Shown: positions 4,950 through 61,700, counted from the stretch's first letter. The stretch: DNA of 64,000 bases from Candidatus Segetimicrobium genomatis (GCA_005882335.1 VBAP01000008.1:346-64345), one strand, 5' to 3'. Numbers and translations: made by a program. Notes: generated by a model from the letters alone, not told the origin.

Positions 4950-6491
4950 CTATTTTCTGACGCGGATACGGACCGTGTGGTATCCCGACGCACCATCCGG
5001 GAGCGTGGGAACCTCCCGGGCCGTCTGCACGACACCAAGTCCGTCCCGGGCGCGGACTTTCAAGGTGTACTCGCCGGGCGCGGTGGGCGTCCAGAGCGCC
5101 GCCCACAACACCCAGGTGAACGGCCCCAGTGGTGGCTTGACCTCTGCCGGCCGCCACGTCCCCCCGCCGTCGGTGCTGTATTCGACGGCCTTGATGCCGC
5201 GATCGCCGCCGTACGCCGCACCACCCAGTCCGATCTCACCGACAGTCCCGGAGCGCGGCGCGACGGTAAACTCCGACATCGTTTTCACGACGGCTTCGTC
5301 GCTCCACCCCGACGCCTCCCAGTATCCGCGGAAGTCGTAGTTGACGACCTCGATCTTGGTAATCCATTTGGGATTCTTCATCCCAAACAACCCGGGGACC
5401 AGCAGGCGAACCGGAAAGCCGTGCTTGGCCGGCAACGGCTCGCCGTTCATCTCGTAGGCGAGGAGCGTGGTGGGATGCATGGCGTCGGCGACGGGAATCG
5501 CCTCGGAGTATCCGTCCGCACACCGGAACGCTACTTTGACCGCTGTGGCGGCGGGGCCTCCAGCGCGCATGAGGACGTCACGTAACTGCACGCCCTTCCA
5601 CTTCGCGTTGCTGATCAGGTCGCCGCCCACCTCGTTGCTGATGCACTCCAGCGTCTGCACCTGTTCGATCGCCGGCATCGCCCGGAGATCCTCGAAGCTG
5701 AACCGCACGGGCTTACTGACCAGGCCGCCGATGTCCAGCGACCATTTCGCCACCTCGACAACGGGATCAAACCCGGGTGGATTCTTGCTGACGACGTAGA
5801 ACCGGTCGTTCGGCGTGATCTCCGCCGGAAGCCCCTGGACGCGCGCGAACAGACTCTGCGCTGCGACTGTGGCGCGGCGGAGTGCGATCTGCAGCCACTG
5901 AGCCGCGGCGCCGCCGGCGGCCGAAGCGATCAGCACGGTCACGGCCCGAGAGAGGAGTTCGCGACGGGTCACTCCCCCGGATGGGGGCGCTCCCGCCGCG
6001 GGCCGGCGCGACAGCGCGACCATCAGCACGGTATAGAACCCGGCAAACAACACGCCGTAGGCGGCCAGCGCCAGCGGCACCGTGTAGGGATTCGCAGCCA
6101 TGCCTTCGGCGGCCAGCCGTTCCGCGAGATAACGTGACGCGGGACCAAACGCCAGAACGGCCAGCAGCCCGGTGACGACGACCCATGCACCCACCAGGAG
6201 CCGCCCGGGCTTCCACCCGGCCCACCGGGCGACCCCGGCTCCGATCAACCCCAACAGCACGACCAGCCCGGCCAGCATGCCCCAAAACGCCGCGGGCTTG
6301 GCGGCGAACTTGAGGCGCACGATCAGGAACGAGAACACCTGCAACGGAATAAGCCGCATCTGCCGTTCCCACAGCGCGAGGGCCACCACAGGGATATGAT
6401 GCGTAAACCAGCCGAAGTACATGGCAATCGCCACGAGGAGTCCGGCCGCCAGGCCGGCCCAAAACCCTGACCGCGTGGAAGACATCGTCAT
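4950..6491 (-). CDS. Sulfite-oxidase-family molybdopterin oxidoreductase with a polytopic N-terminal membrane domain
   Basis: 513 aa. About six hydrophobic helices at the N-terminus. It then has the Mo-binding motif TLECISNEVGGDLISNAKWKGV and a C-terminal dimerisation-like Ig domain. Confidence 0.8.
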   Translation of the reverse strand: MTMSSTRSGFWAGLAAGLLVAIAMYFGWFTHHIPVVALALWERQMRLIPLQVFSFLIVRLKFAAKPAAFWGMLAGLVVLLGLIGAGVARWAGWKPGRLLVGAWVVVTGLLAVLAFGPASRYLAERLAAEGMAANPYTVPLALAAYGVLFAGFYTVLMVALSRRPAAGAPPSGGVTRRELLSRAVTVLIASAAGGAAAQWLQIALRRATVAAQSLFARVQGLPAEITPNDRFYVVSKNPPGFDPVVEVAKWSLDIGGLVSKPVRFSFEDLRAMPAIEQVQTLECISNEVGGDLISNAKWKGVQLRDVLMRAGGPAATAVKVAFRCADGYSEAIPVADAMHPTTLLAYEMNGEPLPAKHGFPVRLLVPGLFGMKNPKWITKIEVVNYDFRGYWEASGWSDEAVVKTMSEFTVAPRSGTVGEIGLGGAAYGGDRGIKAVEYSTDGGGTWRPAEVKPPLGPFTWVLWAALWTPTAPGEYTLKVRARDGLGVVQTAREVPTLPDGASGYHTVRIRVRK

Positions 6492-26362: not shown

Positions 26363-28798
26363 CTACGGGAAGGTCTGTTTGATGATCGGCTTCCCGGGCA
26401 CGGGCACATTGAGCACCACAGATGCTCCCGGCCGCACCATGATCGCTATGGAGCCGTTCCCCTCCAGGTGCAGGCCCTCGGGGAGCGAGTTCAGGTTGAG
26501 CACCACGGTATAGTCACCAGGCGGCAGGTGGGAAAACCTGAACGTTCCATCGTCCGCGGACGTCGCGAACTGCTGGCGTGGCCCCCGCAACTCGAGGACC
26601 ACACCGCCGATGCCCTCTTCGTCGGGGTCGCGGTTACCATTCCTGTCGGCATCGACGTACACGGTCCCGCTCAGCGTCGCCTCGGGGACGAGGGCAAACT
26701 CTAGCCTGGTGCTGGCACCATCTGTGACCTGCACCGTGTACCGGAGCTGCGTCGCGACCAGCCCAACCGGGACGGTCTCGTCATCAAGAGAGATGCGGTA
26801 CTCGCCTACCTTGATCGCCTCGAGTGAAAGCCGCCCGTCGCGATCCGAGATCGCAGCCCTGCGACCTTCGATCCGCATGCTCACACCCGGCACACCAGGC
26901 TCGCCGGGATCCTGTCTTCCGTTCTCGTTGGAATCCTGGAACACGACGCCCTCGAGCCGTCCGTTCGGGACAATCCCATACGTGGTGATCGGATAGCCGT
27001 ATTGCAAGGTGATAGACGATGTGGTATTTCCCGTGGAGTCGAACTGCACCCTGGGGCCCACAGAGAGGCGCGCGCCCGTGGGCAACGTGTGAGACAGGCT
27101 CAGTTCGACAATCATCTGGTTGAGAGCGCTCGGCAGGGTGAACACATTGTTCTGCACCTGAGCGATCAGATCTAAGTACGGCGAAAGTCGGAAGCCCCAA
27201 CCCGTGCCAATCCCCCAGCCGTCTGTGGCACCCACCTGCCGCGTGATCTCTAGCCACGCCGGGAGCCCTGTGTCCAGCGCGTATAAGGTCTGCAGTCTGA
27301 AGATCGCGGTGCTGCTGGTGGTGCCGGCGAGCAGATCGATGGTGTCCGTCTGGTTAGCGGCTACGGTGAACGTCCACCGGTCCTGTGTGTAGAATGCTGC
27401 GGCCTGCGTCCCGGTGTTTCGCGTGCTTACACCTGTCGCGGTATCATCGGTGACGCGTGTCCCCAGCGCGATCCCCCACCCGGGGGCCGGACGGAAGCCC
27501 ACAAGCAGGTCGTATGACACTCGGTTCGGCAGACCGCTGGCACTGCCGTCGAGCAACGTCGCGCCGCTGGAGATCGACCAGCGGGGGTCCGGCGCATACG
27601 CGAGTTGCAGGAGGGGGCCACTCCGGCCGGTGAACAGCGCTGCGTTCCCTACAGCCGGGAAATCCGGACTCACCACCAGGTAGCTGAGGGACGTCGTGAG
27701 CGTTGGCGATGAGGCGACCGTGCCGATCCGCCACGCCGGCCCCGCCGCGAGCCCAGAGACCCCCTCGGCGACTTCGCCGAAGACGGCCAGGCCGGGGGCC
27801 ACCTCTCGGTCGGCGCGCACCCGGGTGAGCAGCGCCCCGGCTGTGGGATCGTACATGAGACCCGCCTCACCCTGCCACGGCCCGGACTGGGGGAAGGTCA
27901 TCGTCATCCCGTAGACCTGACCGCTGGAGTCGGCGAGCGACCCGCCGAAGAACTTCGCCCCAGAGTCCCCCGCTTTCCCCTCATACGCGACGCCCAAGAT
28001 CCCCTGCTGGTAGAGGGTGAATGGAGATTCGTCGAGTGCAAGTCCACCTACCGTCAATATATAGGCCGGGTTGCGGAGGACCACCACGCCTGACGCATCC
28101 AGCGGACCGTTGCCCGCGCCCACTCTCAGCAGCCCTTCGATGTTCTCGGGGGCCCCAAACGATTTGTATTGTACGGTGGCCGTGGCTGTGAGAGTGCCGG
28201 CGCCGGACGTGAGGCCCACTGCGACGTAGCCAGACGACGTGAGCGGCGGGGTGAGATCCTGCTGAAACTCAGAGACAAATGGACGAGTGGCGGCGGGGGC
28301 GGGCGCGGACGCCGCGGGTGGGCGTGGAGGCTTCGCGGCCACTGCCGTCTGAAAGGGCGCGCGGGTGACGATGGTCATCACCCCTTCCTGCGCGTCCCAT
28401 GTGGTCAGCGCGTCGAACAGCGCTTCCACCGCGCTTTTGGGGATCATCGTCACCCCGTTGACCAGACGCACCGGCGCTTCCAGGAGGGTGGTGACGACGT
28501 CGCCCGACCACACCTCCAGGCGATCGACACGCAGCGTCAACACCGCGCCGTCGAGCCTGAGGACGTCGATAGCCGGAGCAGCGAATTTCGTGGTGGCCTG
28601 GAAGCGCCTCGCCAGCGGAGCAAGGGGAAGGTAGACCGTACCATCCTGGAAGAACGCGGGCGGGCTGATGCTGAGCGCGACGTCGTCAACGACGACGCGG
28701 ATCACCGCCGCGGCGCCATAGATCGGCACCGCCAATCCCAGCGTGCAGACCGCCACGCCGGCAATGCCTGTCCACCACCTGCGGAAGCGGCGCGTCAC
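26363..28798 (-). CDS. Large secreted/outer-membrane protein: putative usher of the adjacent chaperone-usher pilus cluster. It has a Cu-amine-oxidase-N-like N-domain, a Gly/Tyr-rich beta-barrel-like core and two C-terminal Cna-B/SdrD-type beta-sandwich repeats.
   Basis: 811 aa with a signal peptide. The C-terminal repeats are GVVFQDSNENGRQDPGEPGVPGV and GTVYVDADRNGNRDPDEEGIGGV. Its size and position after the chaperone fit an usher. The accessory domains are atypical. Confidence 0.45.
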   Translation of the reverse strand: MTRRFRRWWTGIAGVAVCTLGLAVPIYGAAAVIRVVVDDVALSISPPAFFQDGTVYLPLAPLARRFQATTKFAAPAIDVLRLDGAVLTLRVDRLEVWSGDVVTTLLEAPVRLVNGVTMIPKSAVEALFDALTTWDAQEGVMTIVTRAPFQTAVAAKPPRPPAASAPAPAATRPFVSEFQQDLTPPLTSSGYVAVGLTSGAGTLTATATVQYKSFGAPENIEGLLRVGAGNGPLDASGVVVLRNPAYILTVGGLALDESPFTLYQQGILGVAYEGKAGDSGAKFFGGSLADSSGQVYGMTMTFPQSGPWQGEAGLMYDPTAGALLTRVRADREVAPGLAVFGEVAEGVSGLAAGPAWRIGTVASSPTLTTSLSYLVVSPDFPAVGNAALFTGRSGPLLQLAYAPDPRWSISSGATLLDGSASGLPNRVSYDLLVGFRPAPGWGIALGTRVTDDTATGVSTRNTGTQAAAFYTQDRWTFTVAANQTDTIDLLAGTTSSTAIFRLQTLYALDTGLPAWLEITRQVGATDGWGIGTGWGFRLSPYLDLIAQVQNNVFTLPSALNQMIVELSLSHTLPTGARLSVGPRVQFDSTGNTTSSITLQYGYPITTYGIVPNGRLEGVVFQDSNENGRQDPGEPGVPGVSMRIEGRRAAISDRDGRLSLEAIKVGEYRISLDDETVPVGLVATQLRYTVQVTDGASTRLEFALVPEATLSGTVYVDADRNGNRDPDEEGIGGVVLELRGPRQQFATSADDGTFRFSHLPPGDYTVVLNLNSLPEGLHLEGNGSIAIMVRPGASVVLNVPVPGKPIIKQTFP

Positions 28799-28822
28799 AG
28801 TGATTCGTTCCCATGTCGCAAG

Positions 28823-29689
28823 TCACGGCCCGCGGTATGCAAAGCTCAGCTCGCCTGATACCAACACGTCGGCACCGTAGTCGATCACAGCGCGGGCCGT
28901 GTAGGTCCCGGGTCCCAGACTCTTGTCCCAAGAGATCTTGAACTCTCGGGTGCTTGCCGGCAAGACGACGGCCTCCGGGAGGGACACCTTCCCGAGGCGC
29001 TGGCCGGACGCGTCGAGGATCTCGACCTCGCCGCGCGTGTGCAGATGCACGTTGCCTTTGTTGCGAAACGCCACCCTGATGTCCGCGCCGGCACCGCGCG
29101 GCCGGGGTGCAGCGAGCATGTTCACGATGGCGCCCTGCACGACTTCGGTGCCGCGGATGGCGACCAGCAGGCGAGCCGCCAACTTCGGCGCCACCACTAT
29201 GAAGGTCCCCTTCCCTGCGGCCGGAGTCTGGAGGACCGGTGTCGAGGTGACCACGATCATTCCGTACAGCCCACCCCGGGCGTCACGGGGGACCGTGACC
29301 GCGATCCGCACCGGCATCTGCCGCTCCGCCTCGAGATCGAACTCTGCCGGCTGCACGCGTGTGAACCGGGCCACCGACCAGGACAACTTGCCCGGCTCCA
29401 GCACATCGGCCACTCCGTCAGGACGGACGTAGAGATCCTGCACCGCGACTCGCATGCGCGCGGTATTCGGCGCCTTGTTGTACACGACAAGGACGGCGCT
29501 GGCGGTTCCCCCCGGAGGGGGCACCAGTTCGATTTCGCCCGGGCTGATGCCGTACCGAATCGGCTGCGCATGCGCGGAGATGGCGCTGAAACCGAGCAGC
29601 GCGACGGCGGGGACCAGCGCCAGCCACACCGCAGTCCTGACCCGGCGTGTCAAGTGCGGTACAGGACAACCCTGGGGCACTCGCCCCAT
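28823..29689 (-). CDS. Periplasmic pilus chaperone-like protein (PapD/CsuC-like Ig fold). The start was trimmed to MGRVPQG.
   Basis: Signal peptide then a beta-rich 260-aa body. ATGA overlap with the upstream pilin stop. Its position between the pilin and usher genes supports the call. Confidence 0.5.
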   Translation of the reverse strand: MGRVPQGCPVPHLTRRVRTAVWLALVPAVALLGFSAISAHAQPIRYGISPGEIELVPPPGGTASAVLVVYNKAPNTARMRVAVQDLYVRPDGVADVLEPGKLSWSVARFTRVQPAEFDLEAERQMPVRIAVTVPRDARGGLYGMIVVTSTPVLQTPAAGKGTFIVVAPKLAARLLVAIRGTEVVQGAIVNMLAAPRPRGAGADIRVAFRNKGNVHLHTRGEVEILDASGQRLGKVSLPEAVVLPASTREFKISWDKSLGPGTYTARAVIDYGADVLVSGELSFAYRGP

Positions 29690-30156
29690 CAGAGCTCCAC
29701 CACCTGGTAATCCACCCCGATCGTAAAATTCCCCGCGCCGTCGCCCCAGTTGACGCACTGCCTGTAGTAGACGGTGTGATTGATGTTTGAGCCTATTGGC
29801 TGGTTGCTGAAGACATTCACGTATAATGCCGTGATATCAGTAAACGGCCCGCCGGCAGCGGTTGCGTACTGGAAAGAGTTGAGCATCTCCGTCCCGGAAC
29901 CGTTCTTGGCTTTGCCGTTTGGGTTGTTGATCGTATTTGAGCGGATGCGGAGATCGTAATTTTTTTTGGTGCTGGTGACGGTGATGGTTGTCGAGGTGGT
30001 GCTGCAGAATGTCGGCAGGGTCGACCCGATCGCCGCGGTGGCCGGCACGGTGATGGTGAGGGCCGCCTCCGCATGCGGTGGCACCAACAGCGTAGCCAGC
30101 AGCATCACACTGCAGACCGCCACGGTTCTCAAGATCCTGGTCCGCATCATTCTCAT
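29689..30156 (-). CDS. Spore-coat-U (SCPU)/Csu-type archaic pilin subunit
   Basis: 155 aa with a signal peptide. It has the conserved cysteine pair (FCSTTST...YYRQCVNWGDG) and the C-terminal TVYYRQC motif of SCPU pilins. Confidence 0.55.
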   Translation of the reverse strand: MRMMRTRILRTVAVCSVMLLATLLVPPHAEAALTITVPATAAIGSTLPTFCSTTSTTITVTSTKKNYDLRIRSNTINNPNGKAKNGSGTEMLNSFQYATAAGGPFTDITALYVNVFSNQPIGSNINHTVYYRQCVNWGDGAGNFTIGVDYQVVEL

Positions 30157-30247
30157 CAGTCACGAGGGAGGCCGCTGCCGCCGGATGATGACCGGCTCTG
30201 CATCAGCCTCCCTGCACGCCTGTTTGCTGTGTCGATGCTGGGCCGTG

Positions 30248-30700
30248 CTAGTTCGAGCCCTGATACTCGGCAACGATCGTGTAATCGGCCGGGTCGTCAT
30301 CGTACGTCACGCACTGCTTGTAGTACACTGTCTTGGAGACACCCGCATTGCCCGTCTTTGCCTGGCTGGTGAAGGCGTCCGCGTAGGCCGTGGTGATGTT
30401 GCCGTATGTCGATCCGTCAGTCCCCCACTGGAACGCATTCGTCAGGAAGACGCTGCTGGCGTTCTTCGCCTTACCGCCTGTGTACGCGGAGTTGGCTCGG
30501 ATCTGCATGCTCCACGTTTTGTTGCTCTTCACCGTGATGCTGGTGCTCGCCGTCCCGCAGCCGCCGGCGACGCCGGCGTTGGCGGTGATCGACGCCGTGC
30601 CCGGGACTGTGATTTCGATGGCGTCCGCCGCGGTGATGGTCACCGTCTGGCTGCCCGTGGCCGTCCCGCCGTAGCCTGCCCCGACTGCCAGGGCGACCAC
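30248..30700 (-). CDS. SCPU/Csu-type pilin paralogue. The N-terminus lacks a proper signal peptide in this frame.
   Basis: Paralogue of 29689-30156 (ITVKSNKTW...TVYYKQCVTYDDD). An ATG (MKTG...) lies 1 nt out of frame across a run of C residues at 30710-30713 on the plus strand. This points to a homopolymer frameshift or a GTG start. Confidence 0.45.
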   Translation of the reverse strand: MVALAVGAGYGGTATGSQTVTITAADAIEITVPGTASITANAGVAGGCGTASTSITVKSNKTWSMQIRANSAYTGGKAKNASSVFLTNAFQWGTDGSTYGNITTAYADAFTSQAKTGNAGVSKTVYYKQCVTYDDDPADYTIVAEYQGSN

Positions 30701-31059
30701 GATCAGGGTCCCCAGTCTTCATCTGTACTGCCTCCGGTTCCAACGCTTCTCCCGGGCGCTGCCACGTAACACAGGCCGCGGGGCCAATCTTCTACAATAA
30801 TGAGCAAGTTGCGTGCCAGCCCGCGAGGGGACCGTCCGAAGGTCCTAGATCCTGCGCGCAACGTGCCGGCGACTACCAGAGGCTTGCCCTGTCGCGGAGA
30901 TGGCTAGACGGCCGCGCGGAGGGGGAATTTGATATTTACTCAACGGAAATTTGGCGGGGACCAAGCGGAAGGAGATCTTCATCCCTACGGTTGGTAACCA
31001 AGATACTCTACGACGATCGTGCAGGGGGAAGACGAAGCTGCCTACCGCAGTAGGCTCAG

Positions 31060-31569
31060 CTACACCAGTCCTGGATTGATGCGGATGCCCGACAGATCCT
31101 CGTCAGCCATGGAGTCGTCGCCGGCGGCGGCCTGCGTCTCGCTGCCGTGAGGTCCGGAGGGCAGCTCCCCCCGGAGCGCTGCGCTCAGGTCGTCCAGGTA
31201 CCGCGCCACTGCCAGCCGCAGCATGCCTAGCTGCGAAGCCGCTCCGATGATCACGGCGACCACCGGACCCAGCGGCGCCATCACTACCGCACGACCGCCG
31301 TACACCACCATCACAACCTCGGGCGCGCCGAACGCGGCGCTCTCCCCCAGGCGTTCAGACACCATCACGCTGCTGGCCGCGTAGGCCGCCAGGGCATCGA
31401 GGTCGGTTTGGAGGTCGCCGATGGAGTGCAACACCACCCCATCACCGGAGAGCATCAGAACAGCCTGAGCCGCCGACTGCCGTCGGAGCTCCGTGAGCAC
31501 GGTCTGCACCTGCTCGTTGATCTGCTGTTCGTTGGTCACAGGAGTGTTGTACCCGCGCCGCGAGCCCAC
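31060..31569 (-). CDS. Roadblock/LC7 (MglB-like) domain protein
   Basis: 169 aa with the LMLSGDGVVLHSIG...AAYAASS pattern of Robl/LC7 domains. Confidence 0.6.
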   Translation of the reverse strand: MGSRRGYNTPVTNEQQINEQVQTVLTELRRQSAAQAVLMLSGDGVVLHSIGDLQTDLDALAAYAASSVMVSERLGESAAFGAPEVVMVVYGGRAVVMAPLGPVVAVIIGAASQLGMLRLAVARYLDDLSAALRGELPSGPHGSETQAAAGDDSMADEDLSGIRINPGLV

Positions 31570-31580
31570 TAGCCCGACCC

Positions 31581-32390
31581 TCAGGCCACCACCGTGGCGT
31601 CGGAATCCCCGCCGCCGGCGAGACGCGTTTCACCGTCCAGCCAGGACCGCAAGGCAAGGTGGGTGCGCAATGACTGCAGCGCTTCGCCGCGCATCTGGCT
31701 GATTCGAGACTCGGTCACGCGGAGCACGCGGCCGATCTCCCACAAGGTGAGTCCCTCGCAGTAGTACAGCCCGATCACGACCTTGTGGCGGACCGGCAGC
31801 GCTTCGATAGCGTGCCACAGTTCCGCATTGCGCGCCTGTTGCTCCATGCTCCCGACGACGTCGCCGCCGGCATCCCGCGCCAGTGCCTCGGGGAACCGGT
31901 CCGCGTCGCCGAACTCGTCCAGCGATAGAGGCAGCGCCGCGTGCTGATCGGTGCGGGCCCGGCCCAACTGGCGGGTCGCCAGCCCTGTCGCCTCCGCCAG
32001 CTCTTCATCGGTGGGCAGGCGGCCGAGCTGTCGCGTCAACGCGTGCACCTGCGCCTGCACCCGGTGCACGTTGCGCCGCGCGATCCGGGGCAGCAGGTCC
32101 AGCGTGCGCAGGTAGTCGTACATGGCGCCGCGGATCCGCAGACGGGCGAACACCTCAAACGGGATCCCGCGGTCGGGATCGAACCGGTCGATGGCTTCCA
32201 GGAGGCCGATCATTCCGTAGCCTTCCAGATCCTCGCTCTTTACCGTAGGAGGAACACGACTGGTCATCTGCCTGGTCTGTGCGCGTACGAGCGGGAGATA
32301 GGCCAATGCCAGGCGCTCGCGTACCGCAACGGCGTGGCCCTCCTTGAACACCCGCCACAAACTGGCTACCGACTGGGAATCCGCGGCCAT
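31581..32390 (-). CDS. fliA: RNA polymerase sigma factor, FliA/WhiG (sigma28) family
   Basis: 269 aa. Region 2 (DLEGYGMIGLLEAIDRFDPDRGIPFEVFARLRIRGAMYDYLR) and region 4 (LYYCEGLTLWEIGRVLRVTESRISQMRGEAL) are FliA-like. Confidence 0.8.
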   Translation of the reverse strand: MAADSQSVASLWRVFKEGHAVAVRERLALAYLPLVRAQTRQMTSRVPPTVKSEDLEGYGMIGLLEAIDRFDPDRGIPFEVFARLRIRGAMYDYLRTLDLLPRIARRNVHRVQAQVHALTRQLGRLPTDEELAEATGLATRQLGRARTDQHAALPLSLDEFGDADRFPEALARDAGGDVVGSMEQQARNAELWHAIEALPVRHKVVIGLYYCEGLTLWEIGRVLRVTESRISQMRGEALQSLRTHLALRSWLDGETRLAGGGDSDATVVA

Positions 32391-33470: not shown

Positions 33471-33510
33471 GAAAAAAGAGGAGCAAGGAGCGTGCCACGC
33501 CCGAATGGCC

Positions 33511-33659: not shown

Positions 33660-35027
33660 TTACGTCGTCTCCGCCAGCGGGCCTCGGGCCGTCGACGGCG
33701 GGATGTTCATCTCTTCCCGGTACTTCGAGACGGTGCGGCGCGCGATTTTCGTCCCTTCGGCCGTCAACAGGTGGGCAATCTGGTCATCGGTTAGCGGATC
33801 TGTCTCCGCGGCAATGAGCGCTCGAATACGCTCCTTCACCGGCAGCGATTGATCGAAGAAGATTTCGAAGCTCACCACGCGGCCGCTGGGCAACTGCGCG
33901 AACTTGGCGTCCAGCGCGCGACTGACTGTGGACTCGCTGATCCCGAGTTCCGCGGCGATCATCGCCTTGGTCAGCGGCTTCATGTGCGCCTCGCCGCGCT
34001 CGACGAACTCCCACTGTGTGCGCACAATCGTCTGCACGATGCTGGCGAACGTCCAGTTACGGCGGGCCAGGACCTCGATGAATAGCTTGGCACGGCCGAC
34101 GTAATCACGGACGTGATCGCGCGATTTGTCGGAATACCCGGATGCCGCGCGGCGCATCTGCCGGCGCAGGTCGTCATAAAAGGCGTTGACGCGGAGCGCG
34201 AACGCATCCCGCCGGCACAGCTCCACGGTGAAGCCCTCTTCGGTCTGGCGGATGATGATGTCAGGCCGCGCCACTTCGGCCGGGTGCACGCGACCGCCGT
34301 CCTGCTCGCTGCGGTATCGCTCGCCGGGATAGGGGTAGCAGTTGGCCTTGACGAACTCGTGCGCGTCTTTCACCTCGGCGATGGTGACCCCGAGGTCCTT
34401 CGCCACCTTCTCAAACCGCCGCGCGGCCAGGTCCGCCAGATGAGTCTCCACCAGACGCTGGGCCAGCCGGTTGGCGGGCGCCGGCTCCATCACCCGGAGT
34501 TGCAGCAGCAGACACTCTTCGACGTTGCGTGCGCCGACGCCGACGGGCTCGAAGCGCTGGATGCGCCCCAAGACCGCCTCGACCTCTTCGACCTCCGCGT
34601 TCATCTCCTGGGCCACCTGCACGGTGGTCGCTTCCACGTACCCGTTCTCGTTGATGTACCCGATGAGCCGCTCGCCGATGGCGTGGTCGCGAGCCGAGAG
34701 CCCCTGCGCCTGCAGTGTCATCATCAGGTGCTCCTGCAGCGACACCGGCGCCGCCATGCGGGAGAACGGATCGAACTCTTCGTCATCCGACGTCCAGGTC
34801 GCCAGTGACTGCCCGGATTCTTCACCCGACCAGTCGGGCTCCGGGGAGGACGGTATTTCATCCAGTTCCAACGCCGGGTTCTCAGCCAGTTCCTGCTCAA
34901 TGCGCGCCAGCAGCTGGTTGAGCGGCAGCACCAGGAGCGCATTGACCATCATCAGCTTGGGCACCATGCGCTGGTGCAGCTGCGGGTTGACGCCGACTGA
35001 GGTATGAATGCGCGGATCCATAGACAC
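33660..35027 (-). CDS. rpoN: RNA polymerase sigma54 factor
   Basis: 455 aa. It has the C-terminal RpoN box (ARRTVSKYREEMNIP), an HTH and an N-terminal Gln/Leu-rich region. Confidence 0.9.
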   Translation of the reverse strand: MSMDPRIHTSVGVNPQLHQRMVPKLMMVNALLVLPLNQLLARIEQELAENPALELDEIPSSPEPDWSGEESGQSLATWTSDDEEFDPFSRMAAPVSLQEHLMMTLQAQGLSARDHAIGERLIGYINENGYVEATTVQVAQEMNAEVEEVEAVLGRIQRFEPVGVGARNVEECLLLQLRVMEPAPANRLAQRLVETHLADLAARRFEKVAKDLGVTIAEVKDAHEFVKANCYPYPGERYRSEQDGGRVHPAEVARPDIIIRQTEEGFTVELCRRDAFALRVNAFYDDLRRQMRRAASGYSDKSRDHVRDYVGRAKLFIEVLARRNWTFASIVQTIVRTQWEFVERGEAHMKPLTKAMIAAELGISESTVSRALDAKFAQLPSGRVVSFEIFFDQSLPVKERIRALIAAETDPLTDDQIAHLLTAEGTKIARRTVSKYREEMNIPPSTARGPLAETT

Positions 35028-36536: not shown

Positions 36537-36625
36537 ACGGCGCGTATAACCTCGCACCGGGTGCGGGTTCTCTCGCATCGCCATCCTAGAGCAAGTTTCG
36601 TGCCAGGCCTTTCCAAACAAAAAGG

Positions 36626-36746: not shown

Positions 36747-38111
36747 TCATCCGGTCTCCGCCGAAATGTTGTGCTCCTGGATTCTTGTTTGGAGGGCGGC
36801 ACGGTCGATTCCCAGGACCCGTGCGGCCTCGTCCAGGTTCCACGCGGTCATCTTCAGGACCGCGTGGATATGCCGGCGTTCGACTTCACCAAGCGAGAAC
36901 GCCTTCGGGAACTTCGCCCCCGGGGACGGCTGTTCGTCCAGCCAGATCTCCTCGGTGTCGATGAGTTCCCCGGTGGCCAGAATGACCACGCGCTGGACGG
37001 TGTACTCCAGCTCGCGGACGTTGCCCGGCCAGTGGTGGCTACGCAGTCTCTTCATCGCCGCCGGAGTGAAGCCTTTGATCCGCTTGCCGAACGCCACCGC
37101 GTACTTGTTCAGGAAGTGGTAGGCCAGCACGTGGATATCCTCTTTGCGATCGCGCAGCGCCGGCAACTCCAGCGGCATGACGGCCAGCCGGTAGTAGAGG
37201 TCCTCCCGGAACCGGCTGTCGCCGATCGCCTTCTTGAGATCTTTGTTGGTGGCTGCCACGACGCGGGCGTTGACATCGATGGGCTTGTTGCCGCCAACGC
37301 GCTCGATGACCCGCTCCTGGAGCACGCGCAGCAACTTCACCTGCATCGACAAGCTCATGTCGGCGATCTCATCCAGGAAGACCGTGCCGTCTTGGGCGCG
37401 CTCAAACCGGCCGACATGGCTGGTGATCGCGCTGGTGAATGCGCCCTTCTCGTGGCCGAAGAGTTCCGTCTCCAGCAGCGTCTCGGGGATCGCTCCGCAG
37501 TTCACCACCACAAACGGGCCGTTGGCGCGCGGGCTCTGGAAGTGGATGGAGCGGGCCAGCAACTCTTTACCGGTGCCCGTCTCCCCGTAGATCAGCACGG
37601 TGGCATCGGTCGGCGCGACGGCGGACGCCAGCCGCAACACGTCGCGCATCTTTGGAGATTCCCCGACGATCCCCTCGAACTTGAATGTCCGCATCAGTTC
37701 CTGTTGCAGCGCCCGGTTCTCTTGCATCAGGCGGCTGCGTTCCAGCGCCTGGTTCACTACAATCATCAACTCTTCAGGGCGGAAGGGCTTGCCGACATAA
37801 TGGTAAGCGCCAAGCTTGATGGCCTGGATGGCGGTGTCGATCGTCGAAAACGCGGTGATGATGATGACCAGCGCGTCGGGGTTGTGCTCCTTGATCGACC
37901 GCAGCACGCTCATGCCATCGAGCTTGGGCAGCTTGAGGTCGAGGAGCACGAGATCGTAGCGGCCGGCCTTGTACTTGGCCAGCCCTTCTTCGCCGTCGAC
38001 CGCGGTCTCGACCGCGTAGCCGTCTTCGCGAAGAATCCTGATCAGCAAATTCCGGAGGTTCTCCTCGTCGTCGACGACGAGGATGGACGTGCCATCGGTG
38101 ACCATCAGCAC
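36747..38111 (-). CDS. Sigma54-dependent transcriptional activator (NtrC/FleQ-like: REC, AAA+ and Fis HTH)
   Basis: 454 aa with [15 protein letters not shown] (Walker A), the GAFTSA-type sigma54 contact motif (GAFTSAIT) and a C-terminal HTH. Confidence 0.9.
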
Positions 38112-39125: not shown

Positions 39126-39281
39126 GACACCTCGGACGTCACCAGGAAGAAGCCAGTCTGTAATGAGGAGCAATTCCTGTGCCACGTGGGCAGAATGCCG
39201 GGGCCAAGGGACCGGGGGACCAAGGGACCACGCAGCCATGTCTGCCTGGTCCCTTGGCTGCCTGGTATCTGCTCCCGTTGT

Positions 39282-56102: not shown

Positions 56103-56200
56103 GACCCCTTTCCGAACAGGCAAACCCGCCGCGAGGCGGGGACGCAAAGCCACGGGTCAGGGATCAACCTGACAGCCGGGCTGCCGAAGAAGGGGTAATG
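56103..56200 (+). ncRNA. c-di-GMP-I (GEMM) riboswitch aptamer, copy 1
   Basis: GGCAAACC, a P2 hairpin with a GCGA tetraloop, GGGACGCAAAGCC, and a P3 stem (CGGGTCAGG...CCTGACAGCCGGGCUGCCGA). These match the Vc2-type consensus. P1 is CCCCUU/AAGGGG. Confidence 0.7.
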
Positions 56201-56220: not shown

Positions 56221-56250
56221 TGGCGGTCTCCCGCACAAAGGAGACCGCCA
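56221..56250 (+). promoter_or_regulatory. SD-sequestering hairpin (GGCGGTCTCC / GGAGACCGCC) directly upstream of the start codon. It is conserved in all three copies and is the likely riboswitch expression platform.
   Basis: A 10-bp perfect inverted repeat containing AAGGAG, ending at the ATG. Confidence 0.55.
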
Positions 56251-57995
56251 TGTTTTTGGCAGTTCGCAACGGATTCGCCCGTTCCGTTCTGGTGACATTC
56301 CTCACCTGCATGTTTCTGTTCCAACCACTGGGATCGATTGACGTGCTGGCACCTTCTCCCGTCTTTGCCCAGTCCATTCCGTACCTCTCGCAGTGGGAAA
56401 CCAACATGCGCACCTACGGTTCGCTGCACTGCGTCCTCGGAACGCTGGATCAGGTCTACTACGACGCCGAGCGCGTCTACTATCAGATCGCCGACTACAC
56501 CGGCGATCCCTCCTGGCTGAACTGCAGCCAGCTCGCCGAAACCGTCTACCGCGACCAGTATGTCCTGCCCAACAACGGCAGCGTCCCCGGCCACTGGAAC
56601 TTCACCACCGGCCTGCGCCTCGACGCCCAGCGCACCGCTGACGCCCAGTCCAAGACCGCCGCGGTCCTGCTCTCCCAACATGCCGCCTTCGCCACTGACG
56701 GCACCCCCCTGGCCTGGACCCAGAGCGCCGACTACAGCCGCGAGGTCGCCTACGCCGTCGTCAGCTACATCGACGCCCAGGCCCTGGGCGAGCCCTTGCG
56801 CCAGCGCCGCATCGATCTCGTCACCCAGGCCTACGACCACATGGCCCAGTGGTTCGTCCGCTTCGCCTGGCCCGGGCCCTGGCAGCAGAGCCCCCAGGAG
56901 ACCATCCGCCTGGCCCCGTTCATGGTCGGCCTCACCGCCCACACGCTGATCCGCGACTGGGAACAGACCAAAGACTCCCGCCTCATCCCGACCCTCCGCC
57001 TGGCCGCCGACTGGATGTGGGCCAACGCCTGGATTCCTTCCACCCAGGCCATGTGGTACGAGTTTCCAGATCAAGGTCAGCCCTGCTGTCAGGCCAGCGG
57101 CCCGGCGCCCGACTTGAACCTGCTCATTGCCCCCATCTACGCTTTCCTCTACCGGCAAACCGGCGAGACGAAGTATCGCGACGAAGGCGACGCGATCTTT
57201 GCCGGCGGTGTTGCGCAGGCGTGGCTCGGCGGTGGCAAGCAGTTCGATCAGAACTACTGGTGGAGCTTTGATTACGTGACGTGGCGATCCGCGGTGCCCG
57301 CGGCGGCTGACGCCATCGCTCCTGCCGTGGCCATCACCGCTCCGGCCAGCGGATCTACCGTGTCCGGCGCCAGCGTCACCGTTTCCGCTACCGCCTCCGA
57401 CAACGTCGGAGTCGTCGGTGTGCAGTTCACGCTCGACGGGACCAATCTCGGGACTGAGGATACGACCGCACCGTATGCGATCATCTGGAGTACGACCATG
57501 GTGCCAAATGGCGCTCACACCCTGACCGCCGTGGCGCGCGACGCCGCCGGGAACCGAACCATCTCTGCAGCCGTCGGCGTCACCGTCAGCAACACGGTCG
57601 CCGATACTATGCCACCGGTGATCTCGTCCGTCACCGCGGTGTCGGTTACCTCGTCCGGGGCCATCATCACCTGGACCACAAACGAGCCGGCCGACTCGCA
57701 GGTCGAGTACGGCCGGAACATCAATTACGGGATCGTCACGCCGCTCGACACCCGCCTGGTGACCGTACACTCGGTCATGCTCATCGGCCTGGCGGCGAGG
57801 ACCCCATATCACTACCGCGTAAAGTCCAAGGACACAGCAGGGAACCTCACCAAGTCGGCAGACTTCACGTTCAAGACGACCAGTTCCACCGCCGACGCCA
57901 CCCGGCCGCCGATCGCCCTGACAGCACCGATGCCAGCGATGACAATCATTTCGGGGACCGTCACAGTCTTCGGTAACGGTGGCATTCTTGCCTAG
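56250..57995 (+). CDS. Secreted multidomain protein, paralogue 1: signal peptide, conserved W-rich N-domain of about 330 aa (unknown, possibly carbohydrate-active), a bacterial Ig-like domain and an FN3-like domain
   Basis: 581 aa. The N-domain motifs are shared by all three paralogues (QWETNMRT(Y/F)GS(L/M)HCVLGTLD, WPGPWQQSP, QNYWWSFDYV). The Ig-like domain has SDNVGVVGVQFTLDGTNLG. The FN3-like domain has TWTTNEPADSQVEYG...YHYRVKSKD. Confidence 0.7.
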   Translation: MFLAVRNGFARSVLVTFLTCMFLFQPLGSIDVLAPSPVFAQSIPYLSQWETNMRTYGSLHCVLGTLDQVYYDAERVYYQIADYTGDPSWLNCSQLAETVYRDQYVLPNNGSVPGHWNFTTGLRLDAQRTADAQSKTAAVLLSQHAAFATDGTPLAWTQSADYSREVAYAVVSYIDAQALGEPLRQRRIDLVTQAYDHMAQWFVRFAWPGPWQQSPQETIRLAPFMVGLTAHTLIRDWEQTKDSRLIPTLRLAADWMWANAWIPSTQAMWYEFPDQGQPCCQASGPAPDLNLLIAPIYAFLYRQTGETKYRDEGDAIFAGGVAQAWLGGGKQFDQNYWWSFDYVTWRSAVPAAADAIAPAVAITAPASGSTVSGASVTVSATASDNVGVVGVQFTLDGTNLGTEDTTAPYAIIWSTTMVPNGAHTLTAVARDAAGNRTISAAVGVTVSNTVADTMPPVISSVTAVSVTSSGAIITWTTNEPADSQVEYGRNINYGIVTPLDTRLVTVHSVMLIGLAARTPYHYRVKSKDTAGNLTKSADFTFKTTSSTADATRPPIALTAPMPAMTIISGTVTVFGNGGILA

Positions 57996-58619: not shown

Positions 58620-58716
58620 TTCCGACAAGGGCAAACCCGTCGCGAGGCGGGGACGCAAAACCACGGGTCAGGAGACGATCCTGATAGCCGGGCTACCGAA
58701 GAAGGGGTAATGTTTT
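58620..58716 (+). ncRNA. c-di-GMP-I (GEMM) riboswitch aptamer, copy 2
   Basis: Same architecture as copy 1, with compensatory or wobble substitutions in P2 (CGUC/GGCG) and P3. Confidence 0.65.
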
Positions 58717-58762
58717 CGGTCCCCCTGGACTGGCGGTCTTCCGCATGAAGGAGACCGCCATA

Positions 58763-61606: not shown

Positions 61607-61700
61607 GAGAGATCCCTTGCGATAAAGGCAAACCCGTCGTGAGGCGGGGGCGCAAAGCCGCGGGTCAGGAGGTGATCCTGACAGCCGGGCTGCCGATGAA
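61607..61700 (+). ncRNA. c-di-GMP-I (GEMM) riboswitch aptamer, copy 3
   Basis: P1 covaries (UCCCUU/AAGGGA versus CCCCUU/AAGGGG in copies 1 and 2). P2 has a GUGA tetraloop. GGGGGCGCAAAGCC. The P3 stem is conserved. An SD hairpin (CGGTCTCC / GGAGACCG) lies before the ATG at 61778. Confidence 0.65.

Follow-up and report, generated by a model that had tools for sequence, protein, structure and literature searches.

A four-gene operon of an uncultured soil bacterium is best read as a hitherto undescribed functional analogue of the chaperone-usher (CU) pathway in diderm Terrabacteria, and not as a member of the CU family. CU pili are regarded as having components (a PapD-like chaperone, an usher and pilins) that are recognisable by sequence. 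The operon appears to run the same three-part logic with non-CU parts, the periplasmic part being of the WxLIP family, which to our knowledge was previously studied only in Gram-positive gut bacteria. We give roughly even chances to the explanation that a sigma-54-controlled three-component system exports or assembles a surface structure across the outer membrane, working like a CU system with proteins of different families; for this system we infer both secretion and polymerisation.

Organisation and regulation of the operon

The window, i.e. the whole stretch of 64,000 nucleotides that was analysed, is from a host of a diderm Terrabacteria lineage, with an outer membrane. The four minus-strand ORFs of a preliminary description of this DNA were all present at exactly the coordinates it gave. 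ORF analysis and comparison with related loci indicated that these co-directional genes form one unit with a conserved transcription order. The features of the operon are as follows.

30803..30818, minus strand: sigma-54 (-24/-12) promoter, TGGCACGCAACTTGCT, about 80 nt upstream of the subunit-1 start codon
30248-30700, minus strand: subunit 1 ORF (30248..30722 with the ATG at 30722)
29689..30156, minus strand: subunit 2, a secreted paralogue of subunit 1
28823..29689, minus strand: chaperone-like two-Ig-domain protein, 288 aa (the ORF itself runs 28823-29758)
26363..28798, minus strand: 811-aa outer-membrane protein, usher-like candidate (signal peptide, AF2 model, Foldseek)
28370..28690, minus strand: Cu_amine_oxidN1 domain of the 811-aa protein, residues 37-143 (Pfam)
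26978..28243, minus strand: predicted beta-barrel of the 811-aa protein, residues 186-607 (DSSP of the AF2 model)
26396..26965, minus strand: two tandem SdrD_B/CarboxypepD_reg-like beta-sandwich domains of the 811-aa protein, residues 612-801 (Pfam, AF2)

The true start of the chaperone-like gene is probably the ATG at 29689, which gives 288 aa. Its junction with the subunit 2 stop reads TGATG (1-nt overlap) and not ATGA, as had been described, and a gap of 24 nt separates it from the 811-aa gene. The order subunit, chaperone-like protein, barrel was kept in all related loci with enough sequence, and in every one of these the gene for the 811-aa protein came immediately after the one for the chaperone-like protein. 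The locus is on the chromosome, in synteny among housekeeping genes, and in its intact version all four proteins carry Sec signal peptides.

The subunit-1 ORF of the window has no signal peptide. Relative to a 99.5%-identical contig, a 26-nt deletion is present at about 30715, and this is the sole frame-breaking difference in 14.9 kb. Because of this deletion the signal peptide was lost and the frame was shifted, so that ORF 30248-30700 is no longer in the frame of the ATG at 30722. The intact orthologue in a related locus (L004) encodes 166 aa, signal peptide included. As the major subunit has no signal peptide in this strain, the system may be off there.

The promoter is an exact match to TGGCACG-N4-TTGCW, of which 5 matches were observed in the window against 0.74 expected. 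The same element was found upstream of the orthologous subunit gene in other loci (L001, L004, L005, L008, L010, L011, L013 and L015), and the only invariant columns in an alignment of seven intergenic regions were TGGCA...TTGCT. It adjoins rpoN, a gene for an NtrC-type activator, GGDEF and HD-GYP genes, and flagellar genes. The conserved promoter and these regulatory and flagellar neighbours fit a regulated surface appendage, and with the promoter conserved and c-di-GMP genes nearby the regulation is directly testable.

Protein components

CU chaperones have two Ig-like domains, which form a subunit-binding cleft, and domain 1 ends in a donor strand. In the AF2 model of the 288-aa protein (pLDDT 84) two beta-sandwich domains are seen, and a hairpin where domain 1 ends (residues 150-168) has low confidence. 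The best Foldseek match of this model was WxLIP (9i1y/9i25; E=1e-12), followed by CfaA, FimC, CsuC, Caf1M and EcpB (E=1e-9 to 1e-7, TM 0.5-0.67). The superfamily profile A8 matched Enterococcus EfmWxLIP1 (9i25_C, 9i1y_A) over the DUF916 domain (E=4.7e-9); of the CU chaperones in the PDB, which include CsuC, FimC, PapD and Caf1M, it found none. By profile and model comparison, the protein is a homologue of WxLIP (DUF916/DUF3324), and a distant one since the recurrent matches of family members to Pfam WxLIP_PGBD and WxLIP_HBD did not reach the gathering score. PapD_N (PF00345) matched none of the 25 family members and PapD_C (PF02753) faintly matched two of the 25 (0.013), while hhalign against FimC gave a probability of 1%. 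The periplasmic chaperone-like gene proposed earlier encodes a protein whose predicted fold resembles that of pilus chaperones and whose family is that of WxLIP, not of PapD.

Gram-positive WxLIP is a membrane-anchored protein with two Ig domains, and homologues of the 288-aa protein in Actinomycetota and CPR have a C-terminal TM helix and a basic tail like the WxLIP anchor. Such a helix is absent from the 288-aa protein, whose chain ends right after domain 2 (maximum 19-residue hydropathy 0.9), and the protein is a candidate for a soluble, periplasmic chaperone. WxL clusters typically comprise one WxLIP and two WxL partners, and a WxLIP loop is predicted by AlphaFold to insert into WxL, completing its sandwich (PMC10599100). 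The hairpin of the 288-aa protein corresponds in position to this loop.

Ushers have a periplasmic N-domain, two beta-sandwich domains at the C-terminus and, between these, a barrel of 24 strands that holds a plug. The copper-amine-oxidase-N-like start noticed earlier in the 811-aa protein is a Cu_amine_oxidN1 domain (E=1.6e-8; 34.9 bits, cut-off 24.2). All 14 family members exceed the Pfam gathering score for this domain, and a disordered Pro/Ala linker (residues 146-185) follows it in the AF2 model. This model is of moderate quality (pLDDT 71, pTM 0.43, 14-sequence alignment). Its residues 186-607 form about 26 long antiparallel strands, the first four with pLDDT <50, and the barrel size is put at about 22-26 strands. 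No plug domain is seen in the model, the only helix there being a short one at 384-389. Only 4 residues join the last barrel strand to the first C-terminal domain, which leaves no linker that can thread the pore; with the even strand count, this junction would bring the N-terminal and C-terminal domains to one and the same side. The two Cna-B/SdrD-type terminal repeats recognised in the preliminary description proved to be the SdrD_B pair (72 bits), which is followed by a conserved tail, ...P-I-I-K-Q-T-F-P, and is kept in the analogous proteins of L024 (hhalign E=1e-9) and L085 (E=1e-34).

The top Foldseek matches of the 811-aa model were all outer-membrane barrels. The best were full-length ushers, FimD/PapC (4e-20 to 1e-15), with low TM-scores of 0.24-0.29; porins and TonB-dependent receptors followed (~1e-7), and usher matches to the barrel only (1e-8) scored no better than other barrels. 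One family member matched OMP_b-brl (0.0011). PF00577 Usher, PF13954 PapC_N and PF13953 PapC_C matched none of the 14 family members at E<=10, the PDB profile searches missed FimD, and hhalign of profile A1 with FimD gave a probability of 0.7%. No usher, plug or PapC_C model matched, in agreement with the earlier remark that the usual plug and C-terminal domains of ushers are not evident. Since a large beta-barrel is predicted, of about 26 strands where 24 had been envisaged, the secretin or soluble adhesin suggested as alternatives is not supported. Pfam searches found no SLH, OmpA_C or LysM-type peptidoglycan-binding domains. A tether of the OmpM/SlpA type was considered and rejected, there being no SLH match and the N-terminal domain being Cu_amine_oxidN1.

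CU subunits have an incomplete Ig fold and polymerise by donor-strand exchange. The two small genes of the operon are paralogous, as the preliminary description had it (39% identity, E=1e-23), with two Cys conserved in the subunit 2 alignment. Subunit 1 has an N-terminal strand, 'TGSQTVTITAAD', after the signal peptide. Subunit 2 has a signal peptide and no such extension; its mature form starts with 'ALTITVPATA', and the aligned stretch of subunit 1 is 'AIEITVPGTA'. Orthologues of subunit 1, the candidate major subunit, were found in all related loci. Subunit 2, which may be a tip or minor subunit, was confined to the closest relatives (L004, L005, L006, L039 and L041). In Actinomycetota too, subunit homologues accompany the WxLIP-like gene (E=1e-15 to 1e-6), and the N-terminal strand also occurs in monoderm homologues, where no polymer is known. 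The designation of the subunits as SCPU-type pilins could not be maintained: PF05229 matched neither window subunit at E<=1 and 0 of 18 family members even at E<=10. With the subunit profiles A6 and A9, neither CsuA/B nor CsuE was retrieved from the PDB (E<=10), and hhalign against FimA was null. The WxL domain (PF13731, two W-x-L motifs) had no match in the window subunits, the 18 family members or the small proteins of L018, L019, L024 and L029, and profile A9 did not find the WxL chain of 9i25. The first WxL motif is only faintly echoed in the small partners ('SN..W.L.V') and the second is absent.

Proposed mechanism and alternative explanations

In the mechanism that we propose, the small subunits would reach the periplasm with a fold needing an extra strand, and the soluble WxLIP-like protein would cap them through its hairpin at about residues 150-177. 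The subunit-chaperone complex would then dock on the barrel protein at its N- and C-terminal domains in the periplasm, and the pore would let the subunits through. To judge from the sequence, subunit 1 may polymerise by strand exchange, using its N-terminal strand of alternating hydrophobic residues; subunit 2, which has no such strand, would occupy the distal end.

The operon resembles those of CU pili (FimC/FimD, PapD/PapC; Acinetobacter Csu) in combining small Sec-exported beta-rich subunits, a soluble two-Ig protein and a large outer-membrane barrel, in the predicted domain order of the 811-aa protein (NTD, pore, CTD1, CTD2 as in ushers), and in having one subunit with an N-terminal strand and one without, as in rod and tip subunits. 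With this gene order and architecture, with CU chaperones (including CsuC) and ushers as strong structural matches, the ushers at low TM-scores but at the head of the list for the 811-aa protein, and with faint PapD_C in 2 of 25 family members (0.013), an extremely diverged true member of the archaic (sigma/Csu/SCPU) CU family might be considered. It is very improbable. No sequence or profile similarity to a CU pilin, chaperone or usher was detected: SCPU, PapD_N, Usher, PapC_N and PapC_C matched 0 members, the profiles found no CsuA/B, CsuC, CsuE or other CU protein in the PDB (E<=10) while reaching WxLIP at 5e-9, and hhalign to FimD, FimC and FimA was null. The barrel has no visible plug and about 26 predicted strands versus 24, its accessory domains are of other families (Cu_amine_oxidN1 and SdrD_B versus PapC_N and PapC_C), and the host is an uncultured member of the diderm Terrabacteria. 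Furthermore, the chaperone-like protein has its nearest relatives among membrane-anchored proteins of monoderms, which cannot have ushers. The archaic CU pilus of the preliminary description thus stands as a functional analogy (subunits, two-Ig protein, barrel) and falls as a family assignment; the lack of SCPU or chaperone HMM hits, now found for SCPU, PapD_N and Usher in every family member, had been named there as evidence against it. The 811-aa protein might also be an inverse-autotransporter-like adhesin with surface-exposed C-terminal Ig-like repeats, or an unrelated porin, that is merely co-located. Intimin and invasin share its order of periplasmic N-terminal domain, beta-barrel and C-terminal Ig-like repeats, and SdrD_B domains are typical of surface adhesins. 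This is extremely doubtful, as the predicted barrel is about twice as large (~26 strands, not 12), the 4-residue junction after the last strand is too short to thread the pore, the operon has dedicated chaperone-like and subunit genes, and such a barrel gene has a soluble WxLIP-like gene beside it in three divergent lineages, an anchored homologue in none.

Two further explanations start from the WxLIP relationship. The operon might encode a diderm WxL/WxLIP adhesin platform, in which the barrel serves to export or anchor one copy or a few copies of a subunit for surface display and no fibre is formed. The homology of the chaperone-like protein to WxLIP, the arrangement of one WxLIP-like gene with two small partners, as in typical WxL clusters (PMC10599100), and the N-terminal strand in monoderm homologues all agree with this. 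We regard it as unlikely, since neither Pfam nor the PDB profile search showed the partners to be WxL-domain proteins, a pore of 22-26 strands with three periplasmic domains exceeds what an anchor needs, and a subunit 2 without the N-terminal strand fits a polar polymer. Rather less plausible is an envelope-structural complex without secretion, a tether of the outer membrane that would bind peptidoglycan through the periplasmic domains of the barrel, the small proteins and the WxLIP-like protein. Binding to peptidoglycan has been described for WxL and WxLIP (PMC10599100, PMC9772566), the N-terminal domain on its Pro/Ala linker recalls tethers between outer membrane and peptidoglycan, and the locus lies in synteny among housekeeping genes. 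An essential envelope component would hardly be expected, however, to be under sigma-54-dependent, regulator-rich control or to have its major subunit disrupted in one strain; SLH, OmpA_C and LysM-type domains are absent, and the barrel is far bigger than an anchor requires.

Relationship to WxL/WxLIP clusters and monoderm relatives

With the WxL/WxLIP clusters of Enterococcus, Listeria and Lactobacillus (PMC10599100, PMC9772566; 9i1y, 9i25) the operon shares a WxLIP homologue, its position beside two small secreted partners of beta-sandwich type, and a poorly ordered hairpin where the WxLIP strand is predicted to complete the sandwich of the partner; the intermediate relatives in Actinomycetota and CPR retain the C-terminal TM helix. 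It differs in the missing TM anchor, in partners without a WxL domain match or the second WxL motif, in the barrel gene of an organism with an outer membrane, and in reaching the Pfam WxLIP models only below threshold. We tentatively suggest, while considering it less than probable, that this is an independent or ancestral CU-type pathway of diderm Terrabacteria, evolutionarily continuous with the WxL/WxLIP-like complexes of monoderms (Firmicutes, Actinomycetota and CPR): the strand-complementing protein with its two Ig domains would be anchored where there is no outer membrane, and otherwise periplasmic and coupled to an usher-like pore. If true, this would connect pilus assembly in Gram-negatives with surface display in Gram-positives, across the monoderm/diderm divide. 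Should the proposed mechanism hold, machines for fibre or adhesin export would extend to uncultured soil phyla (ANGP1/Armatimonadota, Eremiobacterota), a functional hypothesis would become available for the WxLIP-like clusters that are very common, though unstudied, in CPR and Actinomycetota, and there would be a concrete case of a surface system re-wired with versus without an outer membrane.

A barrel neighbour was found for 0 of 31 distinct membrane-anchored homologues (Actinomycetota, CPR and Clostridia) and for 23 of 32 anchor-less homologues, an association that represents three independent lineages only, namely the window clade, Eremiobacterota L024 and L085. Soluble homologues with no adjacent barrel gene were present in the Eremiobacterota-like loci L061, L080 and L099. 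In the window clade and in the two other lineages, the barrel protein beside the anchor-less gene has two tandem SdrD_B domains.

The four-gene operon and its sigma-54 setting

The four minus-strand open reading frames (ORFs) are all co-directional and fill exactly the interval 26363-30700, which the preliminary description had read as an archaic (Csu/spore-coat-U type) chaperone-usher cluster with an atypical usher candidate.

ORFs of the operon
30248-30700, minus strand: subunit 1, 150 aa as listed
29689-30156, minus strand: subunit 2, 155 aa
28823-29758, minus strand: middle-protein gene; the longest ORF is 311 aa, and the ATG at 29689 gives 288 aa
26363-28798, minus strand: large-protein gene, 811 aa

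The two small proteins are indeed paralogues (39% identity across 127 residues, E=1e-23). The stop codon of subunit 2 and the ATG of the middle gene at 29689 overlap as TGATG, and this start, yielding the 288-aa protein, is used by homologues and by gene calls on related contigs. A 24-nt gap lies between the middle gene and the 811-aa gene. Scanning the operon for promoters and terminators was not informative: inside the four-gene block there was neither a sigma-70-like promoter nor a minus-strand terminator. The G+C content is that of the surrounding sequence, and the genes on either side have housekeeping roles (pyruvate dehydrogenase, Nfu, SUF and adenosine deaminase).

The genes together form a conserved sigma-54 operon whose products are exported. 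An exact match to the sigma-54 -24/-12 element (TGGCACGCAACTTGCT) is present at 30803-30818 on the minus strand, and five such matches were observed in the window against 0.74 expected. In eight divergent loci the element recurs 5' of the subunit orthologue, and it supplies the sole invariant columns of an alignment of 7 intergenic regions.

Regulatory features of the window
31060-31569 and 31581-32390, minus strand: Roadblock/LC7-domain protein and sigma-28-like sigma factor, directly 5' of the operon in all related loci
33482-33497, minus strand: sigma-54 -24/-12 box upstream of the GAF-GGDEF gene
33660-35027: rpoN, in the conserved upstream neighbourhood of the operon
36590-36605, minus strand: sigma-54 -24/-12 box upstream of the response-regulator GAF/HD-GYP gene
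36747-38111: NtrC-type activator gene, in the conserved upstream neighbourhood
39169-39184, minus strand: sigma-54 -24/-12 box near FlgN/FlaG
56110-56189, 58621-58701 and 61618-61698, plus strand: c-di-GMP-I-GGC riboswitch aptamers scoring above the Rfam gathering score

The conserved upstream neighbourhood also encodes a GAF/HD-GYP response regulator and a GAF-GGDEF protein, together with FlaG and FlgN in the window. Sigma-54 boxes, rpoN and an NtrC-type activator in one block form a compact sigma-54 regulon. The c-di-GMP riboswitches, taken with the GGDEF and HD-GYP genes near the operon, point to control of surface proteins by c-di-GMP. The first two aptamers lie directly 5' of genes for large secreted Ig-domain (Big_7) proteins (56250-57995 and 58745-61582). 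In the related locus L003, the Roadblock and subunit genes are separated by an inserted type IV pilin-like gene of typical form (N_methyl, 'GFTLIELLIVVAII'; 5896-6348).

The middle protein, membrane anchors and barrel neighbours among its homologues

The middle gene encodes a soluble protein with a predicted pilus-chaperone-like fold which, by sequence, is a homologue of WxLIP, the DUF916-DUF3324 surface protein of Gram-positive bacteria. In the predicted model (pLDDT 84, pTM 0.73) the chain forms two beta-sandwich domains, and the hairpin just ahead of the last strand of domain 1 (residues ~150-168) is poorly ordered. In Foldseek searches the top PDB match of this model was the Enterococcus faecium WxLIP (9i1y, 9i25; E=1e-12), followed by the pilus chaperones CfaA, FimC, CsuC, Caf1M and EcpB (1e-9 to 1e-7, TM 0.5-0.67). 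A homologue scan with one genome per species yielded 13 close loci, labelled ANGP1 or Armatimonadota, and 20 distant loci at 23-29% identity from Actinomycetota, Acidimicrobium, many CPR/Patescibacteria, a Clostridia MAG and Eremiobacterota. Searches of the PDB by phmmer and hmmsearch with single proteins and close-family profiles gave nothing useful; only the broadened superfamily profile A8, built from the close and distant loci, reached WxLIP, matching EfmWxLIP1 at E=4.7e-9 across the DUF916 domain and matching none of the pilus chaperones in the PDB. Sub-threshold matches to the whole WxLIP_PGBD model of Pfam were recurrent among divergent superfamily members.

WxLIP carries a C-terminal transmembrane (TM) helix and its gene adjoins two WxL protein genes; according to AlphaFold prediction, a WxLIP hairpin strand completes the WxL beta-sandwich (PMC10599100). 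In the literature found, WxLIP is described only in Firmicutes, with nothing on a diderm, barrel-coupled version, and searches on DUF916 in diderms or CPR and on 'ANGP1' returned nothing relevant.

Members of A8 from Actinomycetota and CPR have a TM helix and basic tail at the C-terminus, whereas in the window clade (the close relatives sharing the operon) and in the Eremiobacterota member the sequence stops straight past domain 2. After 75 metagenomic loci were added, every complete homologue was scored for a C-terminal hydrophobic segment and for a barrel neighbour, defined as an adjacent protein of at least 500 aa matching the large-protein profile. A barrel neighbour was present for 0 of 31 distinct anchored proteins versus 23 of the 32 without an anchor. 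Of the nine anchor-less proteins that lack a barrel neighbour, several do not truly count against the pattern: the contigs of L005 and L039 are cut short, and in L023, a CPR protein, the hydropathy is slightly below the cut-off. The counter-examples are the Eremiobacterota-like L061, L080 and L099, soluble homologues with no adjoining barrel gene. The barrel-positive loci represent three lineages. The association is strong but has few independent events behind it. In the window clade the barrel gene is always directly downstream of the middle gene. The Eremiobacterota locus L024 encodes a protein of 1075 aa that combines a barrel-like region with three CarboxypepD_reg repeats, and its tandem pair aligns to the 811-aa protein (E=1e-9); in hhalign with the large-protein profile A1, the C-terminal tandem domains align and the barrel does not. 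The third, L085 (G+C 0.48), has genes for a small secreted protein, for a soluble WxLIP-like protein and for a barrel-like protein of ~620 aa that shares the two C-terminal domains and tail of the window protein (E=1e-34).

Clusters that join membrane-anchored WxLIP-like proteins with small secreted ones occur widely in MAGs of CPR/Patescibacteria and Actinomycetota (L018-L037, L057-L112; for example L018 3157-8303 and L019 5175-8980), at times in two or three tandem copies, and appear to be undescribed outside Firmicutes.

The large protein

The last gene encodes a protein predicted to form a large outer-membrane barrel with an usher-like domain order. The regions of its predicted model (pLDDT 71, pTM 0.43) are as follows.

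Regions of the 811-aa protein in the model
Residues 34-145: N-terminal domain
After the N-terminal domain: disordered Pro/Ala linker
Residues 186-607: 26 long antiparallel strands, the first four with pLDDT <50
Residues 612-705 and 707-801: C-terminal beta-sandwich domains, beginning 4 residues past the last strand

The count of 26 compares with the 24 strands of an usher barrel. Just one short helix stands at the position of the usher plug. The domains named in the preliminary description were recovered with Pfam: Cu_amine_oxidN1 scored above its gathering score at residues 37-143 and is present in 14/14 family members, and the C-terminus comprises two SdrD_B/CarboxypepD_reg-like repeats. Residues ~180-610 gave no Pfam or NCBIfam match, and nothing relevant was found in the literature on Cu_amine_oxidN1 function.

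The top Foldseek matches of the model were the full-length ushers FimD and PapC (4e-20 to 1e-15), compared with ~1e-8 for barrel-only usher structures and ~1e-7 for porins and TonB-dependent receptors. As the TM-scores of the matches are low (0.24-0.29), the predicted likeness to ushers is one of architecture (N-domain, large barrel, two C-terminal sandwiches) and not proof of homology.

Residues 186-265 (28003-28243) are the least confident stretch in AF2 yet show the strongest conservation within the barrel region, including numerous invariant Gly, Ser and Tyr residues and an invariant 'SPxTLYQQ' segment; they might be a gate or plug instead of ordinary barrel strands. A conserved tail, P-[IV]-I-K-x-x-F(-P), past the second SdrD_B domain (26363-26395) occurs both in the window clade and in the distant homologue of L085 (7743-9833).

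Subunits, family assignment and possible assembly

The labels SCPU, PapD and usher were not sustained: no match to SCPU, PapD_N, Usher or WxL was found in Pfam or NCBIfam for any of the four proteins or any aligned family member (E<=10). Comparison of the family profiles with E. coli FimD, FimC and FimA by hhalign was also null, single-sequence templates having low power. Full-length relatives numbered 19 for the large protein, 35 for the middle protein and 17 for subunit 2; all three families are small and metagenomic, and the few named members carry the label Armatimonadota. The subunit family matched neither SCPU, WxL, any PDB chain nor FimA. When 1.84 billion representatives were searched exhaustively with the subunit profile, just 26 proteins matched, all unannotated, and cluster look-up gave no labels other than 'hypothetical protein' and Armatimonadota. 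The long matches P0089, P0092 and P0094 are fn3 arrays, matched repeatedly at marginal E, and were set aside as compositional beta-sandwich noise. A WxL-like reading of the subunits from motif resemblance was dropped, the second motif being unaligned and no model supporting it.

In Actinomycetota, the small secreted proteins encoded beside the anchored WxLIP-like genes match the subunit profile (E=1e-15 to 1e-6), and the pairing of subunit and WxLIP-like protein therefore predates the barrel association. Small proteins of CPR, Eremiobacterota and L085 have no detectable relation to the subunit family; hhalign with those of L085 and CPR L019 gave collinear, non-significant alignments. Two cysteines are kept in the subunits of the diderm clade. 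Subunit 2 is limited to the closest relatives, other lineages having a different small paralogue or none. Straight past the signal peptide, subunit 1 orthologues have 'TGSQTVT(I/V)xAA', with alternating hydrophobic residues, and then 'I(E/D)ITVP'; subunit 2 and its orthologues begin at the 'ITVP' equivalent, without the first segment.

In the mechanism that we propose, the WxLIP-like protein would cap the subunits through strand complementation and hand them to the periplasmic domains of the barrel, which would pass them on to the cell surface; the N-terminal strand of subunit 1 may allow it to polymerise, and subunit 2 would form the tip. We consider this scheme to have about an even chance of being correct. 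A display complex in which the subunits do not polymerise appears unlikely, and an envelope tether more unlikely still. The operon would resemble the chaperone-usher pathway in its working, but the sequence matches that define membership were not found, and a true archaic system that has diverged is improbable. Slightly more improbable is an unrelated or inverse-autotransporter-like barrel. Of the components that define a WxL cluster, the WxLIP alone was recognised. A tentative and rather doubtful proposal is that the operon is an evolutionary bridge linking monoderm WxLIP-type complexes to usher-type assembly.

The window and the soil-metagenome contig L004/L038 (Ga0066710_100000265) are 99.5% identical over 14.9 kb. 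The sole frame-breaking difference is the absence from the window of 26 nt at ~30715, just past the ATG (30722) of subunit 1, the candidate major subunit; the n- and h-region of its signal peptide are thereby lost and the reading frame shifts, while the intact gene encodes a 166-aa protein. The deletion may be genuine, giving a loss-of-function allele, or it may be an assembly error.

The Eremiobacterota-like loci L024 (5137-12497), L080 (3616-12000) and L099 (4779-13068) contain one or two soluble WxLIP-like genes and also encode several secreted proteins of 230-260 aa and one of ~1400 aa. The C-terminus of the latter resembles the C-terminal strand of the small proteins ('...ITYTWIAN'), and it may therefore be a large tip adhesin.
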